Shown here in pieces: positions 2,802 to 3,323 of a stretch of DNA of 14,368 nucleotides; position 1 is the first letter of the stretch, and each line of letters begins with the position of its first letter. The stretch is from a virus, in the UHGV virus genome UHGV-0068104, one strand, 5' to 3'. Under the pieces are notes generated by a model. That model saw nothing but the letters and a program-made list of their open reading frames with translations, searched no databases and was not told the origin of the DNA. Position numbers and translations under genes: made by a program.

Positions 2802-3323
2802 ATGAATATCGTGCCACTTAATTACAAAGGTGAAATTGTCAGTTTCAACACTGATGGTTGGATCAACGTCACAGGTGTTGCTGAGAGATTTGGAAAACGC
2901 ATTGATAACTGGATGCGTTTGGCAGAAACGCTTGAATACGTTCGTGCTTTAGACGAAGCGTTGACCGGGAAAGAATCTCAAATTTTACATCCCTCACAAT
3001 CGAGGTATGTAAAAACCAGCAAGGCACGAAAGGACAGGGGTGGTGGTACGTGGCTACATCCAAAACTTTCAGTTGCATTTGCCCGTTGGTGTGATGCTCG
3101 TTTTGCTGTGTGGTGCGACCTGCACATTGATAGTCTGCTTCGCGGTGAACTGACTGAGCAGCAGAAATATGAGCAAGCATGTCGCATTCGCGATGACCGG
3201 AAATCAAAAGCCAGCAATGGGGCAAGAGAGATGGCTCGCTGGCGATGGGATAAGCCGGTTATTGAAGCAAATGTTGAGTACTGGCGCGAGCAACTGCAGT
3301 TGACTCTCGATATCGCGTGCTGA
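2802..3323 (+). CDS. KilA-N domain protein (moron occupying the position where lambda carries bor)
   Basis: 173-aa ORF, AGGTAA RBS 6 nt upstream of ATG; pattern G.I......G.IN.T..A..FGK....W.RL.ET...V.AL ... RGGGTWLHPKLSVAFARWCDARFAVW fits the KilA-N/APSES-like DNA-binding fold signature as recalled. Confidence 0.65.
   Translation: MNIVPLNYKGEIVSFNTDGWINVTGVAERFGKRIDNWMRLAETLEYVRALDEALTGKESQILHPSQSRYVKTSKARKDRGGGTWLHPKLSVAFARWCDARFAVWCDLHIDSLLRGELTEQQKYEQACRIRDDRKSKASNGAREMARWRWDKPVIEANVEYWREQLQLTLDIAC

Follow-up and report, generated by a model that had tools for sequence, protein, structure and literature searches.

A KilA-N gene behind two terminator-like hairpins in a swappable slot of a lambdoid prophage late region

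The virus genome UHGV-0068104 was examined over a window of 14,368 nucleotides, which is the whole stretch of DNA analysed here and, to judge from its sequence, carries the late region of a lambdoid prophage of E. coli. The subject of this study is an open reading frame (ORF) on the + strand (2802-3323), which starts with ATG and, in the ORF listing, encodes a protein of 173 amino acids with a KilA-N domain and an ORF11CD3-type C-terminus. It is the first substantial gene 3' of the spanin genes Rz (2163-2600) and Rz1 (2356-2547). A previous sequence-only reading of the locus had described a KilA-N DNA-binding protein with its own ribosome-binding site, encoded behind two terminator-like hairpins at the point where phage lambda carries the minus-strand gene bor, and the present analysis agrees with this description. 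The protein matches the Pfam family KilA-N (PF04383) in a profile search with 77.5 bits, against a gathering score of 23.8. A Shine-Dalgarno-like TAGGT can be read from the sequence at 2790-2794 (+ strand), 7 nt 5' of the ATG, and is paired in the minimum free energy (MFE) structure of this allele. The first hairpin (GCCTCGC-GAT-GCGGGGC followed by TTTTT, ~2633-2656, + strand) is predicted by MFE folding, conserved in six phages, and listed as a rho-independent terminator in the annotation of phages HK544 and Emek; the second (2662-2687, + strand), predicted by a terminator scan and by MFE folding, consists of ATGCGTACCGCAACGCAT followed by GTTTTTT (ATGCGT ACCGCA ACGCAT + GT6). In lambda, bor does lie directly 3' of Rz/Rz1, but on the opposite strand and with an unrelated product, Bor being an outer-membrane lipoprotein expressed from the prophage, and the likeness is one of position alone, by coincidence. 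More informative is a comparison with the rha slot that P22, ES18 and similar phages possess, because the leader upstream of the gene and its 3' flank are both common to these phages.

The KilA-N domain covers residues 7-114 (2820-3143), which align to positions 4-106/107 of the PF04383 profile (E = 8.2e-22). In an AlphaFold2 model, built on an alignment of 44 homologues from which the row of Pseudomonas phage D3 was left out, an alpha/beta N-terminal domain is followed by a hairpin of two helices (residues 118-137 and 141-171; 3153-3314), with a mean predicted local distance difference test score (pLDDT) of 92.6. A Foldseek search of the model against BFVD returned 22 matches at E <= 1e-3, with E-values down to 3e-7, nearly all of which are named KilA-N or N1R/p28. 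Against the PDB, the top two Foldseek matches were the APSES domains of Mbp1 (1mb1) and PCG2 (4ux5), both non-significant (E = 0.18 and 0.43), and a profile search of the PDB by sequence gave nothing below E = 0.6. The alpha+beta fold of KilA-N was found both in the model and in the BFVD matches, and the link to APSES is weak. DNA binding by the KilA-N domain is an activity that we infer from the family.

For the C-terminal hairpin, assignment to ORF11CD3 rests on transitive homology and not on the protein's own score. Residues 4-163 of D3 Orf11, the founding member of ORF11CD3, align to 2805-3314 with 46% identity (tblastn, E = 8e-51); D3 Orf11 itself scores 39.8 bits on PF10549, and precomputed Pfam annotation lists PF10549 for nearly all homologues. 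In addition, the Rha-like family phrog_518 matches residues 118-170 (E = 4e-9). The hairpin probably mediates oligomerization or contact with a partner. Membership of the Rha family itself was considered and rejected, given that PF09669 (Phage_pRha) had no match in the window protein at E <= 0.1, that BLASTP against P22 Rha was negative, and that the profile match was marginal. The KilA-N protein is a positional analogue of Rha and does not belong to its family.

The choice of ATG 2802 as the start codon is supported by the conservation of the N-terminal residues across the 44 homologues and by the ratio of non-synonymous to synonymous substitution rates (dN/dS), which is 0.115 over codons 1-116 in comparison with the allele of Salmonella phage SE1 (dS 1.44, dN 0.165). 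The N-terminal domain is under purifying selection. Codons 117-173, on the other hand, do not differ in DNA from the SE1 allele (100% identity), and since the first 116 codons are so highly diverged, a mosaic junction lies inside the gene near codon 117 (~3150), which is the domain boundary. It should be noted that a 120-amino-acid version of the gene, starting from TTG at 2961 (P0021; window 2961-3323), is found in a protein collection, which gives the window as its source. Conservation of the N-terminal 53 residues speaks for an error of the gene caller, and an annotation correction is called for, as some gene callers cut the KilA-N gene to 120 amino acids. Three distinct 1-nt deletions were also observed in other E. 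coli copies (P0014, P0020 and P0051), located after codons L117, C127 and K135 (~3150-3215). All three lead into the same alternative frame and yield proteins of 166 amino acids without the ORF11CD3 domain; they could reflect decay of the prophages, errors in sequencing, or selection against the C-terminal domain.

The protein is 100% identical to HK544 gp62 (Escherichia phage), Emek orf173 (Salmonella phage) and a protein of the Escherichia phage ev099, all of which have the same leader and the same position after an Rz-like spanin and an annotated terminator. The neighbours downstream differ: HK544 has an HNH gene and Emek the P22-type orf53/DUF2560, whereas the window has genes for a TonB_C lipoprotein, a DUF3950 protein, an HNH protein and terminase. 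An allele with 85% identity is common in P22-like Salmonella phages, and the gene was found in 155 of 5426 complete E. coli genomes (~3%), where almost all of the copies listed are annotated as KilA-N domain-containing protein by the Prokaryotic Genome Annotation Pipeline (PGAP). Emek orf173 carries the annotation 'similar to D3 Orf11', and D3 Orf11 has indeed the same two-domain architecture in a protein of 166 instead of 173 amino acids, encoded by a co-oriented insert of a late operon. However, the D3 gene does not follow the lysis cassette but is placed between the head-tail adaptor on one side and the tail genes on the other, and it lacks the enterobacterial leader hairpin. Among the Shiga toxin (Stx) phages and their relatives, 2851 (whose gene is labelled 'kilA'), JLK-2012, 1717 and ECP1 share the slot, the leader up to the ribosome-binding site and the architecture, with both Pfam domains above threshold, but their allele is only 26% identical over residues 63-160 and represents another lineage with this architecture. 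Biologically, the gene is ordinary, since it has already been annotated and lies in a known variable slot, and its domain architecture was reportedly described in 2002. Our literature search found no paper that names KilA-N-ORF11CD3 or KilA-N-P63C, both of which are labels in recent GenBank records. For the role of this widespread KilA-N/ORF11CD3 family, HK544 gp62 would be a tractable test case, with the phenotype of Rha in mutants lacking integration host factor (IHF) as a precedent.

To judge from its flanks, the gene fills a swappable slot for accessory genes, located between the spanin and the packaging genes in the lambdoid prophage. The intergenic leader of 200 bp, which comprises the terminators and a long hairpin, is almost identical across phages whose downstream genes are quite different, and in the Stx-type phages 2851 and JLK-2012 the switch in sequence falls exactly at the ribosome-binding site. 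Positions 2688-2786 are 98% identical to P22 39530-39628, immediately 5' of rha. On the other side, a conserved non-coding 3' flank on the + strand (3377-3669), which includes several mini-ORFs, was delimited by BLASTN, with 93% identity in HK022, 94% in ES18 and 91% in P22, although the upstream genes differ; it is also common to SE1. The strongly conserved, RNA-forming flanks of the slot were found in 3517 of the 5426 complete E. coli genomes (~65%) and this gene in only 155, so that the locus is a mosaic cassette slot. Elsewhere the slot is occupied by genes for pRha+ORF11CD3, the 26%-identical KilA-N+ORF11CD3, KilA-N+P63C, T5orf172, ANT and HNH proteins. The Rha proteins of P22, ES18 and phi80 (Phage_pRha + ORF11CD3) share with the window protein the slot, the leader hairpin (98% to P22), a related 3' flank and the C-terminal Pfam family, but they have an N-terminal pRha domain where the window protein has KilA-N, and no significant pairwise similarity was detected. 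HK022 gp73 and the KilA-N-P63C proteins of mEp234 and mEpX2 share the slot and a KilA-N domain with 47% identity, but end in P63C instead of ORF11CD3, behind a leader hairpin of different sequence that is also long.

In P22, rha (ORF201; 2246-2851 of the sequence L007) is annotated with a GTG start that lies inside the hairpin. The P22 ATG that aligns with the ATG of the KilA-N gene, 69 nt downstream, is preceded by the ribosome-binding site GAAGAAGG and would yield a Rha of 178 amino acids. The annotated GTG is probably a mis-annotation, that is, an artefact of the choice of the longest ORF. In the 3' flank, positions ~3454-3596 match the non-coding part of the P22G small RNA (sequence from PMC13397905), and a hairpin (3388-3423) and two inverted repeats (3583-3617 and 3621-3668) were observed.

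The long leader hairpin (2703-2786, + strand) comprises ~84 nt and ~33 bp in three stacked helices, with its core at 2718-2747, and is homologous to the small RNA P22F, an 89-nt RNA that accumulates in P22-infected Salmonella (2026 paper, PMC13397905). The P22F sequence corresponds to window positions 2708-2787 apart from one base, after which the sequences diverge. The same paper assigns no function to P22F or P22G. The region 2686-2810 folds at -49.2 kcal/mol (z = -4.0), and none of 200 shuffled sequences folds as well. A degenerate pattern for the hairpin core, run on IMG/VR, matched at least 120 contigs (L016-L132), which gave 55 distinct 114-nt versions of the hairpin in two sequence families. 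In the alignment of these versions, 74.8% of the cells are paired in the structure derived from the window, in comparison with at most 53% once the partners have been shifted by 1-3 columns; the same shift lowers the covariation score from 0.205 to at most 0.146, and none of 500 shuffles reached the observed values. The inner helix shows in-register compensatory changes from GC to AU, from UA to GC or CG, and from AU to CG. MAFFT mis-registered the outer helix of the second sequence family, whose own fold gives the same architecture. A search of the window against Rfam 15 at E <= 1 found nothing relevant for the leader or the flank.

In the contigs listed, the genes that start 8-20 nt 3' of the hairpin encode pRha+ORF11CD3 proteins, two lineages of KilA-N+ORF11CD3 as well as other KilA-N proteins, T5orf172/MUG113 and ANT/KilAC proteins, and HNH_3 (+AP2) homing endonucleases. 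These genes correspond to the domain-shuffling 'Bro network' as listed in PMC10111431, plus homing endonucleases. The hairpin probably works on the RNA, by influencing its processing, stability or translation, and an upstream RNA element with covariation support that precedes such different genes points to a common device by which accessory genes of the late region are expressed or processed. Earlier work has described it as a small RNA only, with no function assigned, and it is a by-product of this analysis worth keeping. A bolder proposal, which we regard as possible but doubtful, is that the hairpin acts in cis as a portable RNA module, which marks and controls accessory slots of lambdoid late operons on one or both sides of the lysis cassette and sets the processing, stability or translation of the Bro-network or homing-endonuclease gene that follows, the KilA-N/ORF11CD3 protein being one swappable late effector in conflicts between phages or with satellites. 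Two copies of the hairpin were observed to bracket the lysis cassette in three contigs (L046, L065 and L066). The copy on the Q side, between the antiterminator gene Q and the holin gene, is followed in L046 and L066 by an HNH gene and in L065 by a gene without Pfam match, and the second copy, after the spanin, precedes a Bro-type gene. Klebsiella phage RothC (L011) also has a copy on the Q side, with an annotated homing-endonuclease gene after it.

The explanation that we favour, and hold to be reasonably probable, is that the KilA-N gene encodes a DNA-binding protein of the Bro network, expressed late and dispensable, which serves as a regulator or conflict factor. Our confidence is high for the identity and the context of the gene, and moderate to low for its biological role. 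The gene would have no promoter of its own, as it lies behind two intrinsic terminators and is followed by no + strand terminator before the terminase genes; because of this arrangement, it would be silent in the lysogen and transcribed only within the late transcript, by Q-modified polymerase that reads through the terminators. The sequence-only reading had concluded from the placement after the terminators that expression is regulated. This is plausible, but incomplete, because a Q-antiterminated late operon reads through such terminators, which would block non-antiterminated read-through in the lysogen and would not set the lytic level. The conserved leader hairpin would be an element of RNA processing, stability or translation, and in this allele it may also sequester the ribosome-binding site and so hold a potentially harmful protein at a low level. 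An extra basal stem, formed by 2694-2700 with 2788-2794, indeed pairs the ribosome-binding site here. The protein, presumably neither structural nor involved in lysis, would bind DNA late in infection and act in a Rha-like or antirepressor-like manner on the phage itself or on co-resident or competing elements. Rha offers a precedent, being described as a late-operon product that harms lytic growth when IHF is missing (PMC4936722; ES18 gp79 annotation). The relatives in D3, PS-1 and Oslo are co-oriented inside morphogenesis operons, which fits a late-expressed accessory role.

As to the transcription signals, crude scans found no + strand sigma-70-like site in 2600-2801, including the interval from the terminators to the ATG, and no + strand terminator in 3323-5400, from the stop codon to the small terminase gene terS, as the proposal of a late transcript would have it. 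A moron would have its own promoter upstream and its own terminator downstream; neither was detected, which, given the crude scans, is weak negative evidence. The promoter scan was of limited power, because it also missed the promoter pR' upstream of the holin gene: in simple scans, the interval from Q to holin (840-1400) gave no pR'-like promoter and no tR'-like terminator. By analogy with rha, which is reported to be regulated by IHF, a binding site for this factor was looked for, and the only exact match of the window to the consensus WATCAANNNNTTR lies at 3353-3365, 30 nt 3' of the stop codon; it is not significant, as 58 of 200 shuffles do as well.

Several observations count against this proposal of a late-expressed regulator. 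The crude sigma-70 consensus of the promoter scan could pass over a weak or non-canonical promoter in 2600-2800, and the case for a late operon is built on the order of the genes and on the annotation of homologous phages, pR' itself not having been located in 840-1400. The C-terminal hairpin scores only 16.2 bits on PF10549 (residues 122-169), under the cut-off of 25. The resemblance to Rha is similarly limited: in an hhalign comparison with P22 Rha only the C-terminal ~33 columns align (E = 2.6e-4, 42% probability), and pairwise BLASTP found nothing significant. Sequestration of the ribosome-binding site was rejected as a general feature, given that the basal stem is not conserved among the versions of the hairpin, being present in this allele and in JLK-2012, absent in ES18 and partial in P22 or SE1. 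Finally, we found no experiment on the protein or on any close homologue, and its binding of DNA, its late timing and its dispensability are inferences.

Among the alternatives, the view of the gene as a decaying remnant, left as the 5' part of a longer gene after the loss of its partner domain, is effectively excluded. The sequence-only reading had raised the possibility of such a lost partner and had pointed to the mini-ORFs downstream as its possible remains, and it may be said in favour of this idea that phrog_129, a profile of 273 positions, is matched only over its positions 1-173, and that longer relatives exist, such as the KilA-N+P63C protein of HK022 with 242 amino acids. However, the best 120 of the 704 homologues found are mostly 165-195 amino acids long with both PF04383 and PF10549 present, and D3 Orf11 aligns from end to end. 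When HK022 KilA-N-P63C, 2851 gp48 and others were compared with the whole window by tblastn, nothing was found 3' of 3323, and the P63C part of the HK022 relative had no match anywhere in the window. The mini-ORFs (3317-3513) fared no better as coding remnants, as they lie in a flank conserved at the nucleotide level, where 1-2-nt indels between phages break their frames, and had no Pfam, PHROG or NCBIfam match. Since, moreover, the structure model is confident and complete, the KilA-N gene is intact and not a fragment. A second possibility is that the protein is a host-killing or antirepressor factor like P1 KilA/Ant, toxic to the host or inactivating the repressors of co-resident prophages or satellites. 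KilA-N is said to have been named, in work attributed to Iyer, Koonin and Aravind in 2002, after P1 KilA, reportedly a lethal gene product, which was counted in favour of toxicity. Such a function would account for the terminators and the structured leader upstream of the gene; another phage has an ANT/KilAC antirepressor-domain gene in this slot, phage Oslo has a KilA-N relative beside its arc/ant immI-type region, and the three deletions that remove the C-terminal domain are compatible with, and weakly suggestive of, selection against an active protein in lysogens. Yet no KilA-C/ANT domain (PF03374) was matched by Pfam in the window protein, the N-terminal domain is maintained by selection, and among the best 120 homologues intact copies far outnumber frameshifted ones, with clusters of 385 and 416 members versus 1-2. 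We therefore consider this alternative unlikely, with the remark that it overlaps the late-regulator explanation rather than excluding it.

The position of the gene bears equally on the idea that it is a defence gene expressed by the prophage, a BstA-like abortive infection factor made in the lysogen, whose KilA-N domain would recognize the replicating DNA of superinfecting phages. BstA is encoded near the immunity region, whereas the KilA-N gene is not beside such a region but stands within the late operon behind two terminators, and the scan found no promoter-like site after these. BstA, known from prophage BTP1, is a defence protein that prophages encode in Salmonella, E. coli and Klebsiella, and its N-terminal domain is KilA-N-like (PMC8585504). 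Unlike the window protein, it has 307 amino acids against 173, is expressed in the lysogen, and has a distinct C-terminal domain. PADLOC assigned no named defence family, and only a weak match to the candidate family PDC-S22 was obtained (E = 1.2e-5), over residues 12-103, within the KilA-N part. As the slot otherwise holds Rha, antirepressor-type and HNH genes, a defence role seems very unlikely. The same occupants suggest, conversely, that the KilA-N gene might be a selfish mobile cassette, which spreads by homing or recombination into a hairpin-flanked site with no benefit to the phage: HNH_3 and T5orf172 (GIY-YIG-related) genes take the same position behind the hairpin, the mosaic junctions fall exactly at the hairpin end and at the intragenic domain boundary, and domains of the Bro network have been likened to homing-endonuclease modules (PMC10111431). 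We judge this quite improbable, because family profile searches detected no nuclease domain or catalytic motif in the window protein, homologous recombination between the conserved flanks is enough to produce the mosaicism, and the N-terminal domain evolves under constraint.

With regard to the remaining genes of the window, the lysis cassette upstream consists of a holin gene (1383-1706), an endolysin gene (1690-2166) and the spanin genes, and is preceded by the gene of a Q-type antiterminator (369-857), which is of the PF06530 type. Downstream of the KilA-N gene, an ORF-poor stretch of ~680 bp 3' of 3323 separates it from a gene on the + strand (4004-4345) for a small, lipoprotein-like TonB_C protein (PF03544, E = 1.4e-14). 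This gene is preceded by a promoter-like site (3959-3986) with an extended -10 TG and is a candidate moron; the PHROGs label for the family of its product, 'Rz-like spanin', looks mis-annotated. It is followed by a gene of the DUF3950/YlcI-YnfO family on the - strand (4477-4737) and by an HNH endonuclease gene on the + strand (4719-5084), which precedes the genes for the small (terS, 5374-5937) and large (terL, 5934-7595) terminase subunits. The DUF3950 gene overlaps the start of the HNH gene head to head by 19 nt.

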